The translations under genes and the position numbers were made by a program. The notes beneath the pieces were generated by a model. The model searched no databases, was not told where the DNA came from, and saw only the letters and a list, made by a program, of their open reading frames with translations. This document shows positions 1,503 through 61,819 of a stretch of DNA of 64,000 bases, one piece after another (position 1 is the first letter of the stretch; every line of letters starts with the position of its first letter). The stretch comes from Minisyncoccota bacterium (GTDB taxonomy: Bacteria > Patescibacteriota > Minisyncoccia > Phycocordibacterales > UBA918): positions 6,743 to 70,742 of the forward strand of contig JAIPIB010000004.1 in assembly GCA_021734905.1 (NCBI GenBank), read 5' to 3'.

Positions 1503-2894
1503 TTATTTAAGGAGCATTCGAATTTGAGAAATTTCTTCCTCCAACTCAGTATCCTCCTTTATTTCACGTTTAATTTTCTCACACGAATGAATAACAGTCG
1601 TATGATCCCTACCTCCCAATTTTTGACCTATTGCGGGGTATGAAACTTGAAAATCCTCACGAAGAATATACATAATAAGTTGTCGAGGTTTTACAACCTC
1701 CTTTCGGCGAGTTTTTTCATAAATACTCGCCGGCTCGATATCAAAATATCGTGCAACTTTATCCACAACATCAGAGACAGCGAGTGATTTTCGTGGACGG
1801 GTACTATTTTTAATAAGTAATTTAACCTCATCAAGCGTAAGTGTTCTTCCAAGTAGTTGAGACTGACAGAGAATTGTATTGAGTGCGCCTTCAAGTTCTC
1901 GAATATTTCCTTCAATCGTGTTCGAGAGGTGGTCAACCACATCATCGCTTAAAGTAAGGGTATTTTGGGCAGCTTTTGACTTAAGAATAGCACCACGAGA
2001 CTCAATATCAGGTTGTGGAATATCAACAATCATTCCTTGTGCAAAACGAGACTGTAAGCGCGCCTCCATATTTGACATAAGTGCAGGATGAACATCGCTT
2101 GAGAAGACAATTTGTTTATTGTTGTCGTGCATAGCATTAAAGAGATGGAAAAGTTCCTCTTGAGTTTTTTCCTTATTCATAAGGAATTGGACATCGTCCA
2201 TAATAAGAACATCGTACTGTCTATATTTATCTTTAAAACTATTAGCAGTTCCGTTTTGGAGTGAATTCATATAATCAACAGTAAAACGTTCACTTGTGAC
2301 ATAAAAAACTTTCTTCCCGACGCGCTTCAGTTGGTTTCCAACAGCTTGGATGAGGTGTGTTTTCCCATGTCCCGTTTTCCCGTAAATAAAAAGTGGGTTG
2401 TAGGCAATTCCAGGTTTGTTTACAACGGTACGAGCAGCAGCATTCGCCAACTCATTAAAAGGACCAACAACAAAAGAATCAAAAATATATTTTGGGTTGA
2501 GATTGTCGCTTTTATTGATGTAATATTCCTCAAGGGGGAGGGCTGCATTCACGGTTTGTTTTTTAGAAACCTCGTGCCGTTTATCATTACGTTGCACAAC
2601 AACATATTCAACACTTCTTGCGTGTGGAGAAAGTTCGCGGAGAGTTTTAAGGATTAAACTTTGGAATTTGTCTGACACCCAATCTCGAACAAAGACACTG
2701 GGTACCCCTAACGTAACTGTCCCATCTTCAAGAGCTACAATATGTGTGTCGCGGAACCATGTTTTAAAATTTGCTCCCGTTATAGAAAGTTCAATACTCA
2801 CCAGAGCATCATCCCACAGCTGTTTAACGTCGATTTGTTCAGTGTGAAGGATGCTTGTTGAGATATTTGAAATAGAACTCATAGTTGAAATCAC
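1503..2894 (-). CDS. dnaA: Chromosomal replication initiator DnaA
   Basis: The 463 aa product has a Walker A site (GKTGHGKTHL), a Walker B site (VLIMDDVQFL) and a C-terminal DNA-binding helix-turn-helix (QVSYPAIGQKLGGRDHTTVIHS). This is the classic DnaA architecture. Confidence 0.93.
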   Translation of the reverse strand: MISTMSSISNISTSILHTEQIDVKQLWDDALVSIELSITGANFKTWFRDTHIVALEDGTVTLGVPSVFVRDWVSDKFQSLILKTLRELSPHARSVEYVVVQRNDKRHEVSKKQTVNAALPLEEYYINKSDNLNPKYIFDSFVVGPFNELANAAARTVVNKPGIAYNPLFIYGKTGHGKTHLIQAVGNQLKRVGKKVFYVTSERFTVDYMNSLQNGTANSFKDKYRQYDVLIMDDVQFLMNKEKTQEELFHLFNAMHDNNKQIVFSSDVHPALMSNMEARLQSRFAQGMIVDIPQPDIESRGAILKSKAAQNTLTLSDDVVDHLSNTIEGNIRELEGALNTILCQSQLLGRTLTLDEVKLLIKNSTRPRKSLAVSDVVDKVARYFDIEPASIYEKTRRKEVVKPRQLIMYILREDFQVSYPAIGQKLGGRDHTTVIHSCEKIKREIKEDTELEEEISQIRMLLK

Positions 2895-28992: not shown

Positions 28993-29063
28993 GAATAAAA
29001 TTATACACGATTCCGTAGGCGCATTCTGTTATTGTGCGACACTCCTCATGTACTATATATAGT

Positions 29064-29990
29064 ATGAAACTATCTGAGCTCAAACGAGAATTTCTTGAGT
29101 ACTTAGAAATCGAAAAAGGACGAAGTATTCTTACGATTTCAAATTACGATAGATACTTGGCTCGGTTTTTGACGTATGCAAATACAGAAGATCCCCAAAA
29201 ACTCACGGAGCAGACTGTTAGAGAATATCGTCTCTGGCTTAATAGACAGCCTGGGACAAAAACAGGACGTCAGATTGATACTTTAAAACGAAAAACGCAA
29301 AACTACTACCTCATTGCACTCCGCGCATTCCTTAAGTACCTCCGAAAGCGGAGTATTGAATCACTTAACCCAGAACTTATTGAACTTGCGAAAGTTCCTG
29401 ATAGATCACTTGATCTCATCTCCACACAAGAACTTAACCGACTTATGGATGCGCCTGATGTAAACACTACTCGGGGACTTCGTGACCATGCCATACTCGA
29501 GCTTCTTTTTTCAACAGGGCTTCGTGTTTCTGAATTATGTTCGTTATCACAAGAGGATGTCGATCTTTCGCGAGATGAGTTTTCTGTTCGAGGAAAAGGA
29601 GACAAGGTTCGCGTCGTCTTTCTTTCTGACACAGCACGTAATGCAATCAAAGAATATTTGAAAGTGCGAAAGGACTTTGACGATGCAATGTTTGTTCAGT
29701 ATGGAAAAAATAGTAAAAAAGAGGAAGTGAAAAACAAAGACCTGCGACTTACTCCACGAAGTGTGCAACGTATTATTAAACAGTACGCAACGATTGCTGG
29801 CATTACGCGGAAAGTAACCCCGCATGTTATTCGACACTCTTTCGCCACTGACCTTCTCAGTAATGGCGCTGATATTCGTTCGGTGCAGGCGCTCCTCGGA
29901 CACGCCAATATTGCAACGACGCAAATATACACCCATGTCACTGACAAACACCTCCGCGACATCCACAAGAAATTTCATTCGCGGGGGTAA
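29064..29990 (+). CDS. xerC: Tyrosine recombinase XerC/XerD family
   Basis: Catalytic residues (RHSFATDLL...LGHANIATTQIYTHV) and an N-terminal core-binding domain. The start is taken at the ATG of MKLSELKREF; the ORF track start at 29034 adds 10 aa. Confidence 0.85.
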   Translation: MKLSELKREFLEYLEIEKGRSILTISNYDRYLARFLTYANTEDPQKLTEQTVREYRLWLNRQPGTKTGRQIDTLKRKTQNYYLIALRAFLKYLRKRSIESLNPELIELAKVPDRSLDLISTQELNRLMDAPDVNTTRGLRDHAILELLFSTGLRVSELCSLSQEDVDLSRDEFSVRGKGDKVRVVFLSDTARNAIKEYLKVRKDFDDAMFVQYGKNSKKEEVKNKDLRLTPRSVQRIIKQYATIAGITRKVTPHVIRHSFATDLLSNGADIRSVQALLGHANIATTQIYTHVTDKHLRDIHKKFHSRG

Positions 29991-37219: not shown

Positions 37220-37244
37220 GTAAATATCGCAGTATTTAAGCCGT

Positions 37245-37282
37245 AAAATGAGCGTGTCCTTTATAAAGGACACGCTCATTTT
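37245..37282. terminator. Perfect 38-bp palindrome / bidirectional terminator after xth, carrying the TGTCCTTTA...TAAAGGACA motif
   Basis: AAAATGAGCGTGTCCTTTATAAAGGACACGCTCATTTT is perfectly self-complementary. A second inverted repeat with the same arms (ATGTCCTTTA-n10-TAAAGGACAT) lies 30 bp downstream. Confidence 0.6.
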
Positions 37283-37963
37283 AGTTATCCCCAGTTATAC
37301 ACAGGTATGTCCTTTACAGTAATTTATAAAGGACATACTATAGTGATAGGCCCAGAAAGGGCGAGCAGGTAACACAGGGTTACCCCTTAAAGAGATCGTT
37401 ATAAAATTGAGTTAATACCTCCAAAAAAACTCTTAGTACATCACACCGGTGAGGGACGTCGAACAAACTTAGTTCGCGCGCAAATCACCAAAACTATATG
37501 AGTCACATTTATGGAATTGAACCTCACTTGGTTCATCCACTTGAAACCTTATGTTTCAGCAATGACTCAGACCAAACCAAATAGACCGACCAGACCCAAT
37601 AAAGCCCGTAGGACTGGACGCTGAAATACCACATTTCGGCTTCCGATCCCACGGGCTTTTTTTAAATGAAGCATAGAGCGTAGCGACAATGCTGAATTTA
37701 TGTCCCGATTTGTCCTTCCTTGGGCAAATCGCTGGACGAAGTGAGCAAACGAGCACAGCGACTATTGCGAACTTATACAGAAACTCGTAGATATTTTTGA
37801 GAACATAGTGAAAAAATATCACGAGTTGTTGGATTTTGAGACAAGGAACGTAGTGACTGTGCTGTATTTGATCGTATTTTTAATGATTGAAAGGAATGCA
37901 AAAATTAAAGTGAATTACGTAGCAAGAGGAGATATTGTGATGAAGGAAACGTTCCTGTGATGT

Positions 37964-38317: not shown

Positions 38318-39790
38318 TCAGGTCACCTTGTGCTTCTTGTGTAGTTCCGCCACTGCTTCAGCTTCCTCTTTTTCTTTCTTGTCTTTTCCCTTCTTACCTA
38401 ACACATCAAGTTCTATTTCGGTCATCGCCATGAGTTCAAGCGCCCTTTTCTCTAAGTATTCAGTGGTATTTTTAAGAGGGTCGTCGAGAACTTCCTCAAG
38501 GAGTGCGTTTAGCGTGTCACCAAGTTTTTTACTTGGTTTTTCGTTAGTTATTTCCATAATACGAGAACCATCAATTTTGAGCATCTTTACTGAAATAGGG
38601 TCGCGGAGGGCTTCTTCAACCATCGCTGTATATTTCCTAAGTCGAAATGGCTGCTCTTTTGGTCTCCCTGTTCCTATTCGGTCACATCGGCGAAGCTTTA
38701 GAAGATCCCAGATATTCTCTTGCCCAACATTTGCTATGGTTCTTCGTACAGCAGAAAGTGTTATTTCAGCAGGGTCAGAGAAGAACATGTGCCATCGTAT
38801 AAGTGTGGTGATGCGGTCAATTCTTTCCCGAGGAAATTTAAGTTCTTGCAATGCTTTTTTCGCAACGCGAGCACCAACAACCTCATGTCCATGGAATGTC
38901 CAGTCATTCTTTTCTTTCGACCATCTGCGTGTTTCTGGCTTTGAAATGTCGTGATAAAGCCCTGCAAGGCGAATGTCGAATTCCCAATCTTTGTCAGCAG
39001 CATGCTGCATGGTGCGGAGGAGGTGTTCGTAGACATCAAATGCATGTGCTTGGTTCTGTGCTACTCCAATTCCGCGAAGAAGATCGGGAGCAACATGCGT
39101 GAGAAGCTTGAGTTTTTCAAGAAGGATAATTCCCTGCATTGGCTGTTTCGAATTAAGGATGCGAGTGAATTCATCGCGGATACGCTCCTTTGAAATTCGT
39201 CCGAGGTTATCACTACTTTCTGCGATTGCGGACATCGTATCGCTTTCAATAACGAACCCGAGTTCAACCGCAAGGCGTACCGCTCGCATCATGCGGAGAG
39301 CGTCTTCCTGGAAGCGTTCAGAAGCAGTTCCAACAGCACGAAGACGCTTATGGAGGATATCCTTTTCCCCGTTGAATAGATCAACGATTTTTTCATCTTT
39401 AAGCCGATATGCGATCGCATTTACAGTAAAGTCACGGCGTTTCAGGTCTTCCTCAAGCGATACACCAAAATTAACCGAGTCCGGTCGCCGTGAATCAGAA
39501 TATTCGGATTCAGTACGATACGGTGTTACTTCAACAACCTTAAGTGTTGGATCTTCTGTCTCTGGGTTTACAATACCAACCGTACCATAATCGTTATTAA
39601 GGAATGTCTCAGGAAAAAGACTTTCAATTTCTGTTGGGTGAGCAGTAGTGGTAATGTCCCAGTCCTTGGGGGTTTTACCGATGAGGAGATCACGAACACA
39701 TCCACCAACAAGGTACGCTTCAAAACCTCGGTGTTCGAGGGTGTCAGCAATGTGTTGAACTTCCTTTGGTATCTCGCTTCGCGTGATCAT
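38318..39790 (-). CDS. cca: CCA-adding tRNA nucleotidyltransferase / poly(A) polymerase family with HD domain
   Basis: N-terminal pol-beta nucleotidyltransferase motif (GGCVRDLLIGKTPKDWD), an HD domain (LYHDISK) and a ~90 aa charged C-terminal extension. Confidence 0.85.
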   Translation of the reverse strand: MITRSEIPKEVQHIADTLEHRGFEAYLVGGCVRDLLIGKTPKDWDITTTAHPTEIESLFPETFLNNDYGTVGIVNPETEDPTLKVVEVTPYRTESEYSDSRRPDSVNFGVSLEEDLKRRDFTVNAIAYRLKDEKIVDLFNGEKDILHKRLRAVGTASERFQEDALRMMRAVRLAVELGFVIESDTMSAIAESSDNLGRISKERIRDEFTRILNSKQPMQGIILLEKLKLLTHVAPDLLRGIGVAQNQAHAFDVYEHLLRTMQHAADKDWEFDIRLAGLYHDISKPETRRWSKEKNDWTFHGHEVVGARVAKKALQELKFPRERIDRITTLIRWHMFFSDPAEITLSAVRRTIANVGQENIWDLLKLRRCDRIGTGRPKEQPFRLRKYTAMVEEALRDPISVKMLKIDGSRIMEITNEKPSKKLGDTLNALLEEVLDDPLKNTTEYLEKRALELMAMTEIELDVLGKKGKDKKEKEEAEAVAELHKKHKVT

Positions 39791-39860: not shown

Positions 39861-39932
39861 GCACCCATAGTGAAATGGATATCATAACTGACTTCGGATC
39901 AGTCGTTGGGGGTTCGAGTCCCTCTGGGTGCA
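39861..39932 (+). tRNA. tRNA-Arg (anticodon TCG)
   Basis: Manual cloverleaf: acceptor GCACCCA/TGGGTGC, D-arm GTGA-AATGGATA-TCAT, anticodon stem ACTGA/TCAGT with loop CTTCGGA, T-arm GGGGG-TTCGAGT-CCCTC, discriminator A. No CCA is encoded. Confidence 0.85.
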
Positions 39933-40064
39933 CAAAATGCCAAGCGCAACACGAAAGTGTTGCGCTTGTTGCGTTTTGGCACTCAGAGGGACTCGAGAAG
40001 GTTGCCAGCTATTTTGTAAAAATAGCGACAACCTGTACTGAAACTGTAAGTTTCGAGTCCCTCC
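39929..40064 (+). repeat. tRNA-linked structured repeat unit, copy 1 (136 bp)
   Basis: Begins in the last 4 nt of tRNA-Arg. It contains a terminator hairpin with a GAAA loop, an antisense copy of the tRNA 3' half (GGCACTCAGAGGGACTCGAG), a nested core (AGGTTG...CAACCT with GCTATTTT/AAAATAGC inside) and a sense copy of the T-arm (TTTCGAGTCCCTCC). It is 135/136 identical to copy 2. Confidence 0.85.
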
Positions 40065-40246
40065 AATAATAGACTTCAAGCTCAGAAGTAAGGTTTTTTA
40101 AGGTATTGGTACACAGAATGTACCAATTACAAGAAATATGGCAATTCCTTACTTCGCTATATAAAAGTATAAGTACAACTATTGTTTAATACAAATTAAT
40201 GTATAAACTTGCATATATAGGAACAATAAGATATAATTGATGCAAT

Positions 40247-41410
40247 ATGATAAGAAAACTTAAGTTCAAAAACTTTTATTCCTTTAAGGAAGAGCAGGTT
40301 CTAGATTTCACTGTTACCAAGAAGAAAAGTGACGAATACTATGAATCTCTTGACGGAACTCAAATAAGCAAAGTGATGGCTTTTGTTGGTCCGAATGCTT
40401 CTGGAAAAACAAGTGTCATGAAGTTGTTTGGGTTTCTGAGCTATTTTCTTACATCAGCTTCCAGAGATATCAAAGATACAAATGACACTGGCTTTAACCA
40501 ATATGCATTTTCAAAACCAGAAACAAGCCTTTTGAGTATAGAATTTGAGACTGCTGAAAATCTATTTACTTATGAATTAGAGTTAGACCCTAAACAGGTA
40601 TACCAAGAAACACTTCATAAGAAGATTTTAAAGAAACGAGCACGACCCCTCTTAGTCTTCCATCGAACAATTGAGGGAGTTGAACTAAATAAAAAAGTTC
40701 TTAAAAATATTCCCAAAAAACAACTTGCGTTGTTGCGAAGTGACATTTCCTTAATTGCTTTTTTAAAAGCTAACTTTGATGTGCCGATAATTAATGAAGT
40801 ATATGAATATTTCAATTTATGGTTTGCAAATAATATAAACGAGTCAGGGTATATTGCTTCCCCAGAAACTAAAATGGACGATGCTGCGCAAAGTTACTTA
40901 AAGATTCCGTCATTGAAAGAAAAAATGGAAGAATTTATTAGAAACTTTGATGTTGGAATTGATAAGTTTCTTATTGAAAAGATAGATAGCAAAATTGTAA
41001 TTAAAGGCTGTCATAAAATTAATGACAAAGAACATAATATTCCTTTCCAGTATGAATCTCGTGGCACAAAAACGTTATTTGTAGATTTACTCCCTATTCT
41101 AGGAGGGTTAGAAATTGGAAATTGCTTAATAATTGATGAAATTGAAACAGGACTTCATCCTCAGGCGGTTGATAAATTAATAAGCTATATCGTAGATCAC
41201 ATAAGAAGATCAAAAAAACAGTTTATTTTTTCCTCTCACTCTTTTAACTTTTTAGAGTTATTCGATGCACCACAAATTTATTTAGTTGAAAAGAATGAAA
41301 ACAAAAGTGAAGTCTTTAGATTAGACTCTCTAGGTGTACGACCAGATGAGAATTTCTACTCTAAATATATGAGTGGTGCTTATGGCGCATTTCCTAAAAT
41401 AAGAGTGTAA
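40247..41410 (+). CDS. AAA_21/ABC-type ATPase, AbiLi/OLD-N-terminal-like (putative abortive-infection ATPase)
   Basis: 387 aa. RecF/SMC-like N-terminus (IRKLKFKNFYSFKEE), Walker A (GPNASGKTS), Walker B (LIIDEIETGLHP) and a signature-like FSSHS motif. Confidence 0.7.
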   Translation: MIRKLKFKNFYSFKEEQVLDFTVTKKKSDEYYESLDGTQISKVMAFVGPNASGKTSVMKLFGFLSYFLTSASRDIKDTNDTGFNQYAFSKPETSLLSIEFETAENLFTYELELDPKQVYQETLHKKILKKRARPLLVFHRTIEGVELNKKVLKNIPKKQLALLRSDISLIAFLKANFDVPIINEVYEYFNLWFANNINESGYIASPETKMDDAAQSYLKIPSLKEKMEEFIRNFDVGIDKFLIEKIDSKIVIKGCHKINDKEHNIPFQYESRGTKTLFVDLLPILGGLEIGNCLIIDEIETGLHPQAVDKLISYIVDHIRRSKKQFIFSSHSFNFLELFDAPQIYLVEKNENKSEVFRLDSLGVRPDENFYSKYMSGAYGAFPKIRV

Positions 41411-41412
41411 AT

Positions 41413-41883
41413 ATGAAAGTTCGCCAAATAAAGAAAATGTGCCTCTTGTTTGGCGAAGGCGGGAAAGAAGAAATCTTCTTTCGGTTCTTAGAAAACAGTA
41501 ACAGGTTCAAGAATCGCTTCCCGGATTGGGGAATAGAAATGTCGCATGCGTCTGGGGAAGCGTGCTCAGTTATACTTCAAAAATGTATAAATTTCACATC
41601 CAAGCGTGGTTTCGATTTGGTAATATGCTTTATTGATACAGATAAACTGCAAGAACATGGAAGTCGAAGTGAAGAAGAAAAGAATCGTTTAGAACAGTTA
41701 GCAACAGAACACAGGATTAAAATAATATGGCAAGATCCTGACCATGAGTCAGAGTTAAGTAGGGCTACAAATGGTCGAATAAAAGGAAAAGCTGGTATGC
41801 GGCGGCGGCTAGAAAATAACCTTCAAGCTATCTCAAAAAGCGCTTTTATCCGTAGGATTTTCGCCTTTTTCCCAAATGAGTAA
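41413..41883 (+). CDS. DUF4276/RloB-like small TOPRIM-like protein (putative AbiLii-like partner)
   Basis: 156 aa. The N-terminal LLFGEGGKEEIFFRFL fits the EGxTE-type motif and ICFIDTD supplies a DxD motif. It starts 2 bp after the ATPase gene stop, suggesting translational coupling. Confidence 0.5.
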   Translation: MKVRQIKKMCLLFGEGGKEEIFFRFLENSNRFKNRFPDWGIEMSHASGEACSVILQKCINFTSKRGFDLVICFIDTDKLQEHGSRSEEEKNRLEQLATEHRIKIIWQDPDHESELSRATNGRIKGKAGMRRRLENNLQAISKSAFIRRIFAFFPNE

Positions 41884-41917
41884 GTCTATACTCTTGTTCC
41901 AACGTCGTCCCATAACC

Positions 41918-42053
41918 TGCACAAAATGCCAAGCGCAACACGAAAGTGTTGCGCTTGTTGCGTTTTGGCACCCAGAGGGACTCGAGAAGGTTGCCAGCTA
42001 TTTTGTAAAAATAGCGACAACCTGTACTGAAACTGTAAGTTTCGAGTCCCTCC
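41918..42053 (+). repeat. tRNA-linked structured repeat unit, copy 2 (136 bp direct repeat of 39929-40064)
   Basis: One mismatch to copy 1 (GGCACCCAGAGGG here versus GGCACTCAGAGGG). This copy has the perfect antisense match to the tRNA-Arg 3' half. Together with copy 1 it brackets the two-gene cargo. Confidence 0.85.
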
Positions 42054-42085
42054 TGCCACACACGATAGCATGCTATTATTTTCTT

Positions 42086-45018: not shown

Positions 45019-45681
45019 ATGATACGCAAATCTGCACAGTATGAACAGGCAAAAGAACTACGAATGCGTGGTTTTACATACGCCGAGGTTGCAAAGATTG
45101 TCGGTGTCGCTAAAAGCACTGTTTCTCTATGGTTTTCACGTGAAACATGGTCTGCGAATGTTGCAGAAGACAACACGAAACGTGCGGCGAAGGAAAATAA
45201 AAAACGTATTACTCTTCTAAACAAAGCCCGAAGTAACCAATTTAGAAAGCTCTATACGGAAGCTGAGCGTTCAGCAACTACAGAATTTAAACATTATAAG
45301 AGCAATCCCCTTTTTATAGCTGGTCTTATGCTTTACTTGAGTAAGGGGGATCATTCAAACAGTCCAGTGATTTGTATTTCAAGCTCACGTAAGGAAATTC
45401 ATCGCTTATTCATTAGGTTTTCAACTGAATTTCTTGGTGTTCAAAAAGAAAAAATGAGATTTTGGTTATTACTTAATTCAAGCCATTCAGCCGAGACATG
45501 TTCACGTTCATGGTCGAAGGAGATAGGTCTTTCCGTGAAACAGTTTCACAAGAATCAGATTACTAAGAACAATAATATAGGTAGTACATTGCATGATGGT
45601 GTTGGAAATACTATAATCGGAGGCACACTCATGAAGAAAAAGCTTCAGAAGTGGGTTGAAACAGCTCTTTTGGAGCTGTAG
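45019..45681 (+). CDS. Hypothetical protein with N-terminal helix-turn-helix
   Basis: 220 aa. HTH-like GFTYAEVAKIVGVAKSTVSLWF. It lies immediately upstream of tRNA-Gly(GCC), in the accessory region. Confidence 0.45.
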   Translation: MIRKSAQYEQAKELRMRGFTYAEVAKIVGVAKSTVSLWFSRETWSANVAEDNTKRAAKENKKRITLLNKARSNQFRKLYTEAERSATTEFKHYKSNPLFIAGLMLYLSKGDHSNSPVICISSSRKEIHRLFIRFSTEFLGVQKEKMRFWLLLNSSHSAETCSRSWSKEIGLSVKQFHKNQITKNNNIGSTLHDGVGNTIIGGTLMKKKLQKWVETALLEL

Positions 45682-45690
45682 ATCACATAT

Positions 45691-45761
45691 GCGGCCATGG
45701 TTAAGTGGTATAACGAGTCCTTGCCAAGGATTAGTCGGGGTTTCGATTACCCCTGGCCGCA
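45691..45761 (+). tRNA. tRNA-Gly (anticodon GCC)
   Basis: Manual cloverleaf: acceptor GCGGCCA/TGGCCGC, anticodon stem AGTCC/GGATT with loop TTGCCAA, T-arm GGGGT-TTCGATT-ACCCC, discriminator A. Confidence 0.85.
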
Positions 45762-46260
45762 CAAAATGCCCCGAAAGGGGTTTTTCTGTGGCCAGGAGAA
45801 AGGTGCCGTGCACCTTTCGTGGTAATCGAAACCGCCGGAACGATGTGAGGTACGAACAAGTGAGGCGTGACCCGTGGCACTTATGAGCGTAGCGAATTAG
45901 TGACCATCAGGTTTCAATTACCCCTGGCCGCACCATTAGATAAGTCGGGCTTTTGCCCGGCTTTTCTAATGGTGGTGGGTAATTGAAAAAGCTTTTAAGT
46001 TAGATTGTGAGGCGTATGCCGAAGCAATCTAGCCAAAAGGTGTACTGAAGCAGTATGCTTTCGATTCTTCTTACAGAAGCTGTCTACTTTGCGGGTGTGG
46101 AACACCTCACAAAGTCTTGCGGAATGATGTTAAATCATTCCTCACCCTGGCCACACCATGTGTAGAATAGGCGGGAGGCTGTGAGACCGCAAAGTGGAGC
46201 TAACAGTGAAATGCCGACTCATAGTACAATTACCCAAGTAACCACCCTTTCCACGGGTGG
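45762..46260 (+). repeat. tRNA-Gly(GCC)-linked repeat region with several sense and antisense copies of the tRNA 3' half
   Basis: Begins CAAAATGCC, as the tRNA-Arg unit does, then a terminator hairpin (CCCCGAAAGGGGTTTTT). Antisense tRNA pieces follow (TGTGGCCAGG, GGTAATCGAAACC, GGGTAATTGAAA). Sense copies are TTTCAATTACCCCTGGCCGCAC near 45915-45937 and CCTGGCCACACCA near 46138. Confidence 0.6.
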
Positions 46261-46437
46261 TTTTTATAAAAGACATCTTTAAGGACATTCAGATTTTTGA
46301 GTGGAAAATGTTGAAAACTGGGGAAAACTAAGTTGATATGTGGATAAAGGACACAAATTTATAATAAAATGTCCTTAAAAAATGGCTTAAGATATATGGA
46401 TCGTCAAAATCCAAGACATCTACCGCAATATGTGCAT

Positions 46438-48764: not shown

Positions 48765-49352
48765 TTGATTTTTTTAAGGTATACTTCGTGTATGAATATA
48801 ATTTTTCTTATCATAGTTTTTCTTCTCGGGGTTGGGACGTATGCGGGCGTTAATTATCTAAATGACAAAAACCCTGTAGACTCAAGTATCGATACTGTTG
48901 AGATGATACCTAGTGAAAAAGCTGATATAAAGGTGGCTGAGCCAGCCGAAGAGACAAAAACTACTGTGTCCAAAGGTAGCCCAACGATAGATCTAAGTAA
49001 TCAAGGGCTCGTCAAAGTCCAAGGATCTATTTTTGATAAAATAAACACGGAAGTACTCAATCTTTCAAACAATAACCTCAGTGGGTCATTGTCATCAGAG
49101 ATCGGGCACTTAAAAAATCTCCGCATTTTGGATCTCAGCAACAATAACTTCACCGGTGTGCCGGCAGAAATTGGACAACTTTCGAATCTCGAAGTGCTTG
49201 ATTTGTCAGGGAATCCAATCACCGGCCTTCCGTATGAGCTTGGAAACCTTAAGAATTTGAAAATCCTTGATCTCAGAAATACCAATTATTCAGAGCAGGA
49301 CCTCACGGTCATTAAAGCAGGACTTCCTCAAAATATTGAAATCCTTAAATGA
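48765..49352 (+). CDS. Leucine-rich-repeat protein with N-terminal TM anchor
   Basis: At least six LRR units (LNLSNNNLSGSL, LDLSNNNFTGVP, LDLSGNPITGLP, LDLRNTN...). Confidence 0.7.
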   Translation: MIFLRYTSCMNIIFLIIVFLLGVGTYAGVNYLNDKNPVDSSIDTVEMIPSEKADIKVAEPAEETKTTVSKGSPTIDLSNQGLVKVQGSIFDKINTEVLNLSNNNLSGSLSSEIGHLKNLRILDLSNNNFTGVPAEIGQLSNLEVLDLSGNPITGLPYELGNLKNLKILDLRNTNYSEQDLTVIKAGLPQNIEILK

Positions 49353-49689
49353 GAATAAGGAACACTGAAACTTACAGTTTCAGTACCCATTCAGGATAAT
49401 CTTCTTCGCTTCACTCGAAAAGATATCTCTGAATAGCTTCAGTTCCATATTGTCGTGGAGTCAGGGATCTTTCATTACATGAACGGTTCAGGTTGTATGA
49501 CCGTTTCTTCTTTTAGTATTTGTCGGGGAGCCGGGTGAGACAGTCCTGGAGGCTGTCGCAAGACCTTGAGCAGTTGTTGCGAAAGGTGTACAGCGTCTGT
49601 AAGACGGAATCCGGACCACTCCTTTCTCCGAAAGCCACAATAATCTCCCAGATTATTGGTTCAATTTGGTGTCTTTGTCCTAGTCTGGG

Positions 49690-49760
49690 TCGGGGAGCCG
49701 GGAATCGAACCCGGACCACTCGGTCCCAAACCGAGTACACTACCACTATGCTACACCCCG
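49690..49760 (-). tRNA. tRNA-Pro (anticodon TGG)
   Basis: Minus-strand cloverleaf with anticodon stem CTCGG/CCGAG and loop TTTGGGA, T-arm CCGGG-TTCGATT-CCCGG and a 3' acceptor CTCCCCG+A. One T:T mismatch in the acceptor stem (position 6:67) and a 3-bp D-stem lower the confidence. Confidence 0.65.
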
Positions 49761-49804
49761 ACCAAGACAGGGACGAGATCTAAGACCAAGACACCAAACT
49801 GAAC

Positions 49805-49841
49805 CCCAAACCGAGTACACTACCACTATGCTACACCCCGA
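49805..49841 (-). repeat. 37-bp exact duplicate of the tRNA-Pro 5' half (acceptor through anticodon loop), 44 bp upstream of the gene
   Basis: CCCAAACCGAGTACACTACCACTATGCTACACCCCGA occurs at 49725-49761 (within the tRNA) and again at 49805-49841. The tRNA 3' end (TCGGGGAGCCGGG) is also copied at 49524-49536. Confidence 0.8.
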
Positions 49842-49854
49842 TGCAGCGAGAGAA

Positions 49855-49958
49855 GTCACAAGGCTGTAATTCACTCTCGCAAATATCTTAAATCAAAGTT
49901 TACTTGGATTTAAGATATTTGCGAGAGTGAAAGTATGCTTTGCATACGCCTTGTGACT
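49855..49958. repeat. 104-bp composite palindrome (outer 11-bp and inner 23-bp perfect inverted repeats)
   Basis: Outer arms are AGTCACAAGGC...GCCTTGTGACT. Inner arms are CACTCTCGCAAATATCTTAAATC / GATTTAAGATATTTGCGAGAGTG around a 13-nt centre. Confidence 0.7.
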
Positions 49959-53291: not shown

Positions 53292-53596
53292 TTTCCACAC
53301 GCAGACCCCAGTCTGACTGCGTGTAATAAATGAATGGGACGCTCGTAGCGAAGAAAAGTACGAGCACGACAGAGGGATAAGAGACCGAAGCCCTGTCAAA
53401 AGCTTTCTGGTAGATCAGCTTAAACTACCCGTTCGCCCAAACGTGATTGGTGCATTGGCGAGTTGAGTGTTTACTCCTCCTCGCCATCTTTATACAGTTT
53501 CTGAAATTGTCGGAAACTTTTAGAGATTTGTTCTTTCACATTGAACACCGGCATACTGCCAACCGCACCCCAGGTGAGTGGGTAAAGGAGATTGGG

Positions 53597-54538: not shown

Positions 54539-55312
54539 GGCATGAGCGGGGATCTGGGGCAACACATAACCCTCAGGCGAGACCGCATTTCGAATGAATG
54601 GTCTGCGACGGCAGATTGCGCGGGGTTTCGAAAGATCCTCGAAGGCACAGACCAAGTTAATGTCAGAGTAACGACGTTAACCCAGTGATGGCCAATGTCA
54701 TATCTTCTCCTCGACGAGAAGATATGACCTTAGATAAACCAAAGATTTTGGGTTTATCAGGCATCGAGTCTGTGTAATTCTTCCACTATTCATACCCAAT
54801 GACCTGTAGCGGGTTCCATACATATGAATAGTTGGCGTAGCTTTTCAAGCTATGTGAGGCTGAGCGTCCTCAGTCAATTCCCAAGAGGACTTACAACCTC
54901 CTCTTGGGATCTTCATGAAGTTTCTGAAATCGTCGGAAACTTTTAGAGATTTTGTTCTTTCCAAACTAACACAAGGAGATTGCTATGTTGATCGATTCTG
55001 CTGAGGCATGGGAAGCGTGTAAGGTTCTCATGTTCATGTCTGGGGTCCTCGGGTTTGCAGTCGGGTTTTTTCTTCGCGATCGTTTCTGGGATGTAAAACA
55101 GAAAAATTCGCGACCGAAAGCAGACGTATATCAATTTCCGAAGCGAGGAAGTTAGGACCTTCCTCGGCTTTATACAGTTTCTGAATTTTCGGGAGTTGTT
55201 AGAGAGAAAGTTCATTTCAACATCAAATTTTCAAATCTGTTCAAGTTCGAAAATTGCAAAGATTTTATCTTGTCTGGTTAGTACAAGAATTAGTAATTAT
55301 AGTAAATTTATT

Positions 55313-57248: not shown

Positions 57249-57440
57249 AAGTAGGAATATATACTCGCATTACCCGAGCGTGATCGCGACATTGGCGAGT
57301 TGAGTGTATTCATCTCCTCGCCATCTTTATCAAGGTTTTAACTTAGGTTGAAGGTTTGATAGAGGGTAAACAGGCGGTTCCTGGAGGGAATCGTCTGTTT
57401 TTTGCAAAAAAACAGACGCAAAAATGATATACTTGTACAT

Positions 57441-61193: not shown

Positions 61194-61303
61194 GTTGTCA
61201 TTGATTGTATCATGGGGTTTAAAGTGGGAACTGTTTATGCTAGAATCATCCGGGATAAGTGTGTGATGGTTGTGGCGACTATTTCACTGTATCTTCTTCA
61301 CTC

Positions 61304-61374
61304 GCGGGTGTAGTTTAGTGGTAAAACGACTGCCTTCCAAGCAGTAGTTGGGGGTTCGATTCCTCTCGCCCGCA
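61304..61374 (+). tRNA. tRNA-Gly (anticodon TCC)
   Basis: Manual cloverleaf: acceptor GCGGGTG/CGCCCGC, anticodon stem ACTGC/GCAGT with loop CTTCCAA, T-arm GGGGG-TTCGATT-CCTCT, discriminator A. Confidence 0.85.
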
Positions 61375-61553
61375 CATTTGAAAGACCGCCTTAGGGCGGT
61401 TTTTCAGTGTGCGGGCGAAGCAACCTGCTGGGAGCAGGTTGCGCGAGGAATCGAAAAGGTTGTCAGATATTTTAGGAACGAAGTAAACTAAAATATCGAC
61501 AACCTGTACTGACCATGTAATGGTCGATTCCTCTCGCCCGCACAAACTGTAAG
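61375..61553 (+). repeat. tRNA-linked structured repeat unit at tRNA-Gly(TCC), same family as the tRNA-Arg units
   Basis: Terminator hairpin (GACCGCC/GGCGGT plus T5). Antisense tRNA 3' half (TGTGCGGGCGA...GAGGAATCGAAA) split by a 9-bp hairpin. Core AGGTTGTC...GACAACCT enclosing GATATTTTA/TAAAATATC. Then GTACTGA and an exact sense copy of the tRNA 3' end (TCGATTCCTCTCGCCCGCACA) at 61533-61553. Confidence 0.8.
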
Positions 61554-61819
61554 ACTCAAAAATTAGATGTACTTTCAGCAATTTGATTGCAATATAAAAA
61601 CCCCTCACAAGGGGGTTTTTATAGTGGTGGGAACTAATGGATGTATACCCATCGTCTCCTTGATAGCGTTACTTGGTGTACATGTACCAAGTTAATACCT
61701 CCGCTATAAATACATGATAACATTTTTTTAATAAAAACAAATATGGGGATAAAGTTTTATGTGTCTGAAATATAAAATCCCCGCAGGCATAAGCCTGCGG
61801 GGATTTTAAAAGGAGAAGA

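Follow-up and report, generated by a model that had tools for sequence, protein, structure and literature searches.

A stack of small folded modules behind a tRNA-Gly(GCC) gene of a Minisyncoccota bacterium: possible serial insertion at tRNA 3' ends

At least three small folded insertion modules, stacked head to tail, occupy about 500 nt of the 3' flank of the transfer RNA (tRNA) gene tRNA-Gly(GCC) in a Minisyncoccota bacterium (Patescibacteriota). The gene lies in a 64,000-nt stretch of contig JAIPIB010000004.1 (assembly GCA_021734905.1, positions 6,743 to 70,742), which we call the window and to which all coordinates refer. In each module a sense copy of the tRNA 3' end (S) comes first, then a palindromic terminator, an antisense (AS) copy and a folded core, before the next S begins. 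The core of unit 1 belongs to a family that we named C and that of unit 2 to the family R1; a third, R1-like core lies inverted within the third S, and a decayed fourth unit follows. The comparisons reported here lend support to serial insertion at this tRNA. We tentatively read the tract as a stack of non-autonomous insertion modules of about 130-200 nt that home to the T-loop-to-3'-end segment of the tRNA (probability roughly 0.45), and the modules apparently form an undescribed class found beside very many tRNA genes of Patescibacteria (Candidate Phyla Radiation, CPR).

ARAGORN and Rfam placed tRNA-Gly(GCC) at 45691-45761/2 (Rfam tRNA 64 bits), and the other tRNA genes within the 64-kb window are Arg(TCG) at 39861-39933, Pro(TGG) at 49686-49761 on the minus strand and Gly(TCC) at 61304-61375. 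An earlier interpretation made from the letters alone (the sequence-only reading) had described at least three antisense and at least two sense fragments of the tRNA 3' end in the tract, interleaved with hairpins after a terminator hairpin. When positions 45766-46260 were scanned with the final 28 nt of tRNA-Gly(GCC), using 300 dinucleotide-preserving shuffles as the control, three sense fragments (45910-45933, GGTTTCAATTACCCCTGGCCGCAC, 24 nt with 1 mismatch; 46145-46156, CCCTGGCCACAC; 46057-46066, GCTTTCGATT) and three antisense fragments (45819-45833, GTGGTAATCGAAACC; 45977-45988, GGGTAATTGAAA; 45787-45796, TGTGGCCAGG) were detected, along with a weak seventh one (CAATTACCC, 46227-46235). 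Four fragments scored at least 9, compared with a mean of 0.14 and a maximum of 2 in the shuffles, and neither the number of matches nor the best score was reached by any of the 300 shuffles; the fragments thus exceed the chance expectation that the sequence-only reading had named as one possible refutation. The hairpins were also recovered: the terminator scan reported a terminator-like hairpin at 45768-45781, and the RNA folding z-scores were -4.6 for 45785-45935 and -8.6 for 45908-46160. Moreover, the 9-mer CAAAATGCC was indeed present 3' of both tRNA-Arg (39934-39942) and tRNA-Gly(GCC) (45763-45771).

The T-loop-to-3'-end segment of the tRNA gene (45691-45762, plus strand, as are all features of the tract unless stated otherwise) is the repeated target, S1 (~45739-45762; direct-repeat family D4). 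The trailer CAAAATGCC and the terminator hairpin T1 (45763-45786; stem-loop 45768-45781, then a T run) would belong to unit 1 rather than to the native flank, because in a pair of loci described below (L136 and L148) the native trailer follows the second tRNA-end copy. The T1 stem differs in the aligned closest relative, locus L144, yet remains complementary. A small branch hairpin (~45798-45818) divides the antisense copy AS1 (45787-45833) into the acceptor part at 45787-45796 and the T-arm part at 45821-45833; three pairs of this hairpin show compensatory changes relative to L144. In the predicted fold AS1 pairs with S1 or S2, and the minimum free energy (MFE) fold closes unit 1 through AS1/S2. 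The core of unit 1 (45834-45909) reads CGGAACGAUG, a hairpin, GAGG, the hairpin CACUUAUGAGCGUAGCGAAUUAGUG and ACC, and it is 82% identical to that of L144. The second sense copy, S2 (45910-45935; 24 nt with 1 mismatch, then CCA; 93% identical to L144), bounds unit 1 on the right and also provides the left arm for the hairpin of unit 2.

This second hairpin is formed by S2, the terminator-like palindromic hairpin T2 (45933-45972) and AS2 (GGGTAATTGAAA, 45977-45988), the latter two spanning 45933-45988 in the fold; together they make a single long hairpin at 45911-45988 with six compensatory pairs relative to L144, including the S2/AS2 pair 45916-45984 (A-T versus G-C). Unit 2 (45977-46074) aligned over its full length with the R1 covariance model (45.5 bits, E 5.5e-10). 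It contains the 5' strand of the closing helix P1, AAA, the P2 hairpin with a bulged A (~45991-46038), the junction UGUACUGA (46041-46048), P3 (46049-46059) and the start of S3. Since the R1 model, built from units of the tRNA-Arg type, matches here, unit 2 belongs to the family of the Arg unit; the earlier proposal of one kind of element at both tRNAs therefore stands, and the different inner core that it had expected here is found in unit 1.

The third sense copy is broken after its T loop. Its left part, TTTCGATT (46059-46066), is separated from its right part, ACCCTGGCCACA followed by CCA (46144-46158; from the fragment scan and the L144 alignment), by an inverted R1-like core (46067-46143, minus strand) located at the T-loop/T-stem junction of S3. 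This insert is absent in L144, where an intact third tRNA-end copy, TTTCGATTACCCCTGGCCGCA, is uninterrupted. On the minus strand the inverted core reads as a hairpin (46141-46121), GCAAGA, P2, UAGACAG and P3, and as a degenerate copy it scores weakly against the R1 model (8.9 bits, 46068-46117). Homology to better inverted copies, which score 40-61 bits against R1 in the orientation opposite to that of the tRNA fragment, supports its assignment as R1-like; a similar inverted arrangement occurs beside tRNA-Pro and in L019, L004, L086, L069, L071 and other loci. The stack ends (46159-46265) with a decayed further unit (46159-46226), the fourth tRNA-end remnant CAATTACCC (46227-46235) and a final hairpin (~46242-46265) that, with its T run, we read by eye as a terminator and that the terminator scan did not list. 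In L144 the position of the decayed unit is taken by a third unit, which is C-like, and by a fourth copy, GATCGATTACCCC; only 32% identity is left. A CCA such as the one behind S2 and S3 is no general feature of the copies, and both CCA-ended copies of this tract lie in a hairpin stem.

L144 shares about 72% nucleotide identity with the window in the flanks (~28% diverged) and carries the same C-then-R1 stack. Its R1 core is 79% identical and its hairpin spacers are 58-70% identical to those of the window. Compensatory changes were observed in three pairs of the branch hairpin, six pairs of the S2-T2-AS2 hairpin and one pair of the R1 core, as opposed to 0-1 in shifted controls. Thus, where the region had been described as scarred, units 1 and 2 are conserved and structured rather than mere scars. 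A conserved non-coding RNA in relatives had been regarded as counter-evidence to insertion, and units 1 and 2 do behave like constrained structured elements.

Homologues of the unit 1 core (45834-45909) were found by nhmmer and blastn in other Patescibacteria loci, and the core aligned with 12 other members of the C family, which was assembled manually. The family is characterised by a CGGA...GAG internal loop, two covarying hairpins and a GUGACC/ACC end directly before the T-loop copy, and in an RNAalifold alignment of the 13 members compensatory changes occurred in 17 of 18 pairs. An nhmmer profile located C units at about 35 of the tRNA-Gly loci described below. A GA-rich submotif, GUGAGC-loop-GCGAAAC / UGAGCGUAGCGAA, is common to the long variants of R1 and the C cores (45847-45866, 45880-45904 and 61470-61490); its sequence suggests tandem sheared G-A pairs, similar to a k-turn, and a common protein-binding module. 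In addition, a CUGGGAG-loop hairpin, the usual splitter of AS, stands alone in the D-loop region of a tRNA-Gly-like fragment in L082 (~2430-2520, minus strand) and may be an independent mini-insert.

In the R1 core three helices meet in a three-way junction: P1 (the AS/S closing helix), the P2 hairpin, in which one A is bulged, and P3, which has 4 bp and a GUA loop; the junction sequence is UGUACUGA. When this structure was applied to 62 copies, 92.8% of the cells were paired compared with 79% in shuffles, and 18 pairs were altered on both sides. All four pairs of P3 and six of the eight pairs of the P2 upper stem covaried, a value that none of 500 shuffles reached and that slid registers did not approach. 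The covariance model detected 157 copies at E < 1e-4 in 772 kb, the E-values being rough as they came from a shortened calibration. In the 41 matches outside the seed motif the P2 lower stem covaried (GGUUG/CAACC, CCUUG/CAAGG, CCCGA/UUGGG, GCUUU/AAAGG), and the bulged A and the junction were fixed. Within P2 and P3 the ratio of G-U to A-C was 38:10 on the sense strand, which implies that folding takes place on the tRNA-sense strand. Most matches with a tRNA within 450 nt (106 of 120) lie downstream of it on the same strand. In the window the model matched at 39986-40067, 41975-42056 and 61444-61538 (all >90 bits), at 45977-46074 and at 49352-49449 on the minus strand. The units behind tRNA-Arg and tRNA-Gly(TCC) consist of a trailer with a hairpin, an AS of their own tRNA that is often split by a hairpin, the core and an S that starts in the T loop, and their conserved core is AAGGTTGNCAG...CGACAACC TGTACTGA plus a mini-hairpin.

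Evidence for insertion came from orthologous loci. Scanning metagenomes with the 28-nt 3' part of tRNA-Gly(GCC) yielded 86 loci, dereplicated to 62; most of the 86 have a homologue of the helix-turn-helix (HTH) gene of the window (45019-45681) just upstream and are therefore orthologous. Seventeen of the 62 were empty (no match above the thresholds; one such call, L167, is in fact a degenerate unit), 19 carried one C unit, nine one R1 unit, three each R1+C, C+R1 and C+C, and eight had other contents. The empty locus L136 and the occupied locus L148 are 97.5% identical upstream and differ by one 196-nt module. This extra sequence in L148 comprises a trailer, a terminator, AS, a C core and one tRNA-end copy, and it is bounded by tRNA-end repeats of 19-21 nt. 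In the alignment, the sequence behind the second tRNA-end copy of L148 corresponds to the native L136 trailer, indicating that the module supplies its own terminator and one tRNA-end copy. Similarly, L023 and L045 are 100% identical through tRNA-Ala and an R1 unit, after which L023 has a C unit and a gene starting exactly after S. The terminators of empty sites are long palindromes that start immediately after the discriminator base. When the two flanking tRNA-end copies of a module differ, AS agrees with the upstream rather than the downstream one (28 versus 3), which would fit S, terminator, AS and core being inherited together as a block.

Repeated insertion and excision at tRNA-Gly(GCC) had been proposed. 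The insertion part is sustained by L136/L148, by L144 and by the 62 loci, whereas the excision part is not, as the L136/L148 difference could be a gain or a precise loss. Synteny at this tRNA was found to vary between lineages. For this exact genome strain-level variation was discarded, the two contigs with these flanking proteins sharing an equal spacing of 817 nt.

A scan with the exact core motif in one genome per species gave 99 loci in 66 assemblies, the comparison sequences all being metagenome-assembled genomes or metagenome contigs. Nearly all of the 99 loci were labelled as CPR groups (Paceibacteria/Parcubacteria, Kaiserbacteria, Nomurabacteria, Patescibacteria group and some Saccharibacteria), a few were labelled just 'bacterium', and none was assigned to another phylum. 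Seventy-nine of the 110 motif copies lay within 400 nt downstream of a co-oriented tRNA, and at least 30 isoacceptors were represented, each matched by its own S and AS. Independently of the core, 89 of the 188 tRNAs in these loci were followed by an extra sense copy of their 3' end, which typically began 100-180 nt beyond the tRNA. Identical tandem units were found in eight loci, and short units carry only the T-arm part of AS.

The core motif had no match among 2.9 million viral contigs, and a phage or plasmid origin was rejected on this ground. With Rfam 15, including self-cleaving ribozymes, tmRNA and T-box, only the four tRNAs passed in the window, and permissive scans of 45600-46400 and 61280-61640 gave sub-threshold noise only; compared by eye, the cores did not fit a hammerhead, group II domain 5 or box C/D RNA, and these identities were discarded. 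Our literature searches found no account of such elements, their coverage being incomplete, so that novelty is not proven.

Units also occur in other settings. Cores of R1 type or related ones lie at the 3' ends of protein genes, away from tRNAs, in L021 (~640-950) and L048 (minus strand, ~1900-2400); the repeated flank there is the gene's own terminal hairpin, the order is hairpin, core and hairpin copy, and one core is nested in another. In L012, L015, L025, L027 and L077 an R1 core located ~30-115 nt upstream of an intact tRNA-Arg(TCT) is preceded by the first ~47 nt of this tRNA, and hence the duplicated part is its 5' portion, not the 3' end. A C directly follows the discriminator in all 89 tRNA genes analysed (L001-L099 and the window), mostly as CAA and rarely as full CCA.

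Under the insertion reading a module would carry a replacement copy of the last ~21 nt of the tRNA, so that the tRNA would stay intact, together with its own palindromic terminator, an AS zipping with S into a hairpin of 30-40 bp and a conserved folded core (R1 or C). The displaced original 3' end would be left downstream as a direct repeat and would offer a fresh target, which would allow modules to stack; one sits inverted inside such a displaced copy. The repeats are 19-24 nt long, start at a family-specific point in the T loop (R1 53/54-54/55; C ~56/57) and end 1-3 nt past the discriminator. Most likely, a module in a small circular or a folded single-stranded form would undergo site-specific recombination with the tRNA gene, in or beside the T loop. 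In that form the S/AS hairpin would restore the target as a duplex, and the hairpins of the core would make up a three-way junction exactly at the crossover. A circularised module would fold as one three-way junction whose long arm is the S/AS hairpin and whose branch point is the insertion point; this predicted fold favours recombination of a circular or single-stranded form, presumably catalysed by a recombinase acting in trans. After insertion the modules would persist under structural constraint, the sense strand probably being transcribed behind the tRNA as a terminator or structured RNA.

By analogy, the recombination logic may be that of CTX phage or integron attC sites placed on the classical logic of attachment (att) sites in tRNA genes. 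Genomic islands and prophages with tRNA-targeting tyrosine integrases cross over in the T loop. As in these elements, the modules are flanked by T-loop-to-3'-end repeats, the tRNA is kept whole by the copy on the element and units accrete in tandem; tRNA-end repeats with a regenerated tRNA were found both in S1/S2/S3 and in L136/L148. However, the modules measure only 130-200 nt, carry an antisense copy of the target and their own terminator, and have cores that covary like RNA or single-stranded DNA. None of the more than 150 copies was found to have an integrase within it or nearby, and no tyrosine or serine recombinase was found in or adjacent to the modules, serine recombinases not having been searched for specifically. 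Clustering of the open reading frames (ORFs) of the 99 loci revealed no linked recombinase. A phmmer search of all ORFs of 188 loci with the Xer-like protein of the window (29034-29990, the sole tyrosine recombinase there and 16 kb away) found only two Xer orthologues, neither adjoining a unit, and Pfam showed no recombinase among neighbour genes.

Folded single-strand sites are known from the CTX-phage attP(+), used by XerCD, and from integron attC. The imperfect long sense/antisense hairpin could likewise mimic a duplex target, and it was found as an imperfect one-strand hairpin of S, terminator and AS with six compensatory changes relative to L144, structure being conserved over sequence. 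Head-to-tail arrays, gene cassettes between sites (window 39929-42053) and an enzyme that is not encoded by the cassette are further likenesses. The modules differ in targeting a tRNA gene and not dif or attI, in copying the host target in their arms and in having extra conserved hairpins (P2, junction, P3). They lack GTTRRRY boxes, the T loop of the target being TTCGANT and neither GTTRRRY nor dif, and no integron integrase (IntI) was found.

REP/BIME/REPIN, Correia and RUP/BOX repeats are also short, non-autonomous, hairpin-forming, located after genes and co-transcribed, partly domesticated as terminators or stability elements and probably mobilised in trans. Unlike these, the modules are strictly specific for tRNA 3' ends, have target-derived S and AS arms and different cores, and lack terminal inverted repeats and a GTAG motif; no RAYT-type gene was seen. 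The terminal inverted repeats and 2-14 bp duplications of miniature inverted-repeat transposable elements or insertion sequences were not found either, the ends being an A-rich trailer and the P3 hairpin and the repeat being 19-24 nt. Casposons duplicate 14-15 bp of a tRNA 3' end, and type V-K CRISPR-associated transposons (CAST) bear a match to the adjacent tRNA. The modules resemble both in homing to tRNA 3' ends with end duplication or with element sequence matching the tRNA, but casposons and CAST are many kb long, encode Cas1 or Cas12k/Tns, have terminal inverted repeats and lack an S/AS hairpin; no Cas1 or Cas12k/Tns gene was found in the loci examined. Plant tRNA-snoRNA dicistrons and mascRNA are tRNA-linked RNAs released by tRNA-processing enzymes (works in the reference list of PMC12045711). 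A structured RNA directly 3' of a co-oriented tRNA and a closing helix that imitates acceptor and T stems are shared with the modules, whereas the module helix copies the specific neighbouring tRNA and the units are insertion-polymorphic and stacking.

Several points weigh against insertion by mobile modules. No enzyme, circular form or excision product was seen, and empty sites were observed between lineages only. RNA-like covariation and a G-U bias would not be expected of double-stranded integrase att sites. The reading does not account for the matched S and AS that a module would need at a new tRNA, and some units stand at non-tRNA hairpins (L021, L048). Cores at different tRNAs were as similar within genomes (0.723) as between them (0.721), which indicates that the family is old and constrained and not the product of a recent burst; recent intragenomic transposition was therefore rejected. 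Finally, the retention of units 1 and 2 with compensatory changes points to a function for the host or in cis rather than to purely selfish DNA.

Other origins were considered and discarded. Retro-copying of a mature tRNA, with a primer-binding-site-like antisense, was rejected, as CCA is not enriched, following 12 of 89 copies and nine of 89 genes. What the copies have in common is the C/CAA trailer of the genome, and AS matches this trailer as well. TIGR-Tas dual-guide arrays have a different architecture with 9-nt spacers and 36-nt units.

The strongest alternative, which we nevertheless consider unlikely, is that the units are host-functional cis-acting RNA modules and not mobile elements. 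AS, core and S would form a tRNA-shaped chimeric RNA, in which a helix like the acceptor and T stems closes the core, or else extended terminators or insulators; the units would be co-transcribed and processed like tRNA and would spread slowly by duplication, recombination and horizontal transfer. The strong covariation with its sense-strand G-U bias, the downstream co-orientation of 106 of 120 matches and the missing within-genome homogenisation all agree with such a role, as do the conservation of units 1 and 2 despite ~28% divergence of the flanks, the presence of a unit at about half of the sampled tRNAs, the long palindromic terminators right after the discriminator already at empty sites and the closure of unit 1 by AS1/S2 in the MFE fold. 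However, units are cleanly present or absent between near-identical loci, core families and their orders vary at one tRNA, and an inverted copy is inserted within a displaced tRNA-end copy. Moreover, a terminator stands between the tRNA and the core, and a scan found no promoter inside. The downstream copy often drifts without compensation in AS (28:3), so that the closing helix is not consistently kept.

It is rather unlikely that the units represent a self-targeting RNA or DNA element, with AS as a programmable ~20-nt guide and the junction core as an enzyme scaffold, or, alternatively, AS-core-S tRNA-shaped RNAs cut by RNase P and the 3'-end machinery. Guide-directed insertion taken by itself appears quite improbable. 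AS, as RNA or single-stranded DNA, would pair as a ~20-nt guide with the tRNA gene, an enzyme acting in trans would cut both ends of the paired segment to give a target-site duplication of ~20 nt, and retargeting would need a change of the guide alone. In line with this, AS and the duplicated segment (T loop to discriminator +1-3) are equally long, this segment has sharp family-specific boundaries, each of more than 30 different tRNAs has an AS that matches it, the local sequence is also repeated in the units at non-tRNA hairpins, and the cores, with their bulged A and invariant junction, look like conserved protein-binding scaffolds. However, no candidate effector is linked to the units, short units hold only the T-arm part of AS, inverted inserts lack a matching AS/S pair, and AS also pairs with the module's own trailer, which fits a structural hairpin rather than a guide.

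Very little likelihood is left for the units being decayed att scars, left after large prophages or genomic islands had integrated at the tRNA and had mostly been deleted. Direct repeats of a tRNA 3' end are their classic signature, and cargo genes lie between unit copies at tRNA-Arg (an AbiLi-like pair) and in L068. Nevertheless, such scars would not account for a compact architecture of 130-200 nt with covarying cores in more than 150 copies, for the absence of matches in 2.9 million viral contigs and of detectable integrase remnants, or for the structural constraint on orthologous units. Chance matches or a plain local tandem duplication have a negligible probability: single matches of 9-10 nt are weak taken alone, but the observed pattern was reached by none of the 300 shuffles, dozens of tRNAs carry it, each matching its own sequence, and L136/L148 differ by an entire module.

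The other tRNA loci of the window carry related units. Behind tRNA-Arg(TCG), an R1 unit (39934-40067, plus strand; 94.2 bits; inverted repeat I25) comprises the trailer CAAAATGCC, a hairpin, AS, the core and a partial S, and a second copy (41918-42056, plus strand; 93.8 bits; direct repeat D2) is 99% identical. The two 136-nt R1 units at 39929-42056 flank a two-gene cassette (40247-41883) encoding an AbiLi-like AAA ATPase (40247-41410; PADLOC E 1e-63) and a RloB-like protein (41413-41883), and a diverged tRNA-Arg end, GTCCCataaccTGCAC, marks the right-hand cassette junction. The arrangement resembles a defence cassette that has entered between stacked units, and unit copies flank cargo in L068 as well. 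The gene for the CCA-adding enzyme (38318-39790) adjoins tRNA-Arg. An R1 unit lies behind tRNA-Gly(TCC) (61376-61538, plus strand; 91.1 bits). Behind tRNA-Pro(TGG), the region 49352-49640 (minus strand) has a 3' copy with an inverted R1-like core (~49530-49615) and a further R1-like unit (49352-49449, minus strand; 35.9 bits), the closing helix of which is not tRNA-derived. Upstream of tRNA-Pro there is an exact 37-nt copy of its own 5' part (49805-49841), the gene is flanked by inverted repeats (49658-49683 and 49780-49805), and a 30-nt near-perfect palindrome lies further upstream (49870-49931).

The HTH gene upstream of tRNA-Gly(GCC) encodes a protein of ~220 aa with an N-terminal HTH and an unassigned C-terminal domain (45019-45681; also L002, L067, L082, L093 and most of L103-L188). 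Its relatives show a GLGLYWGEG motif, of which the copy in the window has a degenerate form. The gene ends less than ~40 nt from the tRNA 5' end, sometimes overlapping it, and is kept upstream of tRNA-Gly(GCC) even at empty sites. A homing endonuclease as the driver, considered on account of a LAGLIDADG-looking motif, was rejected, as Pfam and PDB sequence searches showed the HTH only and the gene is syntenic at empty sites. In many orthologous loci a DnaA-box-like motif lies between the tRNA-Gly units and a YraN/UPF0102 gene and is sometimes repeated; the conserved motif, (G)ATATGTGGATAAAGGACA with the perfect DnaA-box-like TGTGGATAA, is found at 46336-46352 and also in L105, L117, L124, L126, L136, L137 and others. 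Because the window has no GC-skew switch, a replication origin (oriC) at TGTGGATAA was rejected, and the motif more probably serves as a promoter or in regulation. Two DnaA-box-like motifs also follow a perfect 40-nt palindrome at 37244-37283 (TAAAATGAGCGTGTCCTTTA/TAAAGGACACGCTCATTTTA). A 91-nt direct-repeat family (53436-53526, 54859-54949 and 57273-57363; 66-73% identity) that ends in GTTTCTGAAATTGTCGGAAACTTTTAGAGA is unrelated to the tRNA units.

Genes for tRNAs are the classic landing pads of large mobile elements. Here the same landing pads hold elements that are a hundredfold smaller and lack an enzyme gene, but that encode both strands of the target together with deeply conserved folded cores and accompany about half of the sampled tRNAs in 66 assemblies. 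If recombination of a folded single strand or insertion directed by a guide is involved, this would be a new and possibly programmable form of site-specific insertion. If the cores are RNAs, they would represent two or more new abundant RNA classes in Patescibacteria, from which, to our knowledge, almost no non-coding RNAs are known experimentally, and tRNA-shaped RNAs would constitute a large tRNA-indexed set of small RNAs in these bacteria. Either a guide or a tRNA-shaped RNA would imply an undescribed RNA-protein system specific to these bacteria with their reduced genomes. At the same time, the units inflate and scramble tRNA flanks, yield pseudo-tRNA fragments and mark hotspots of cargo such as the AbiLi-like defence pair, and they are thus relevant for annotating the genomes of uncultured episymbionts and for reading their plasticity.

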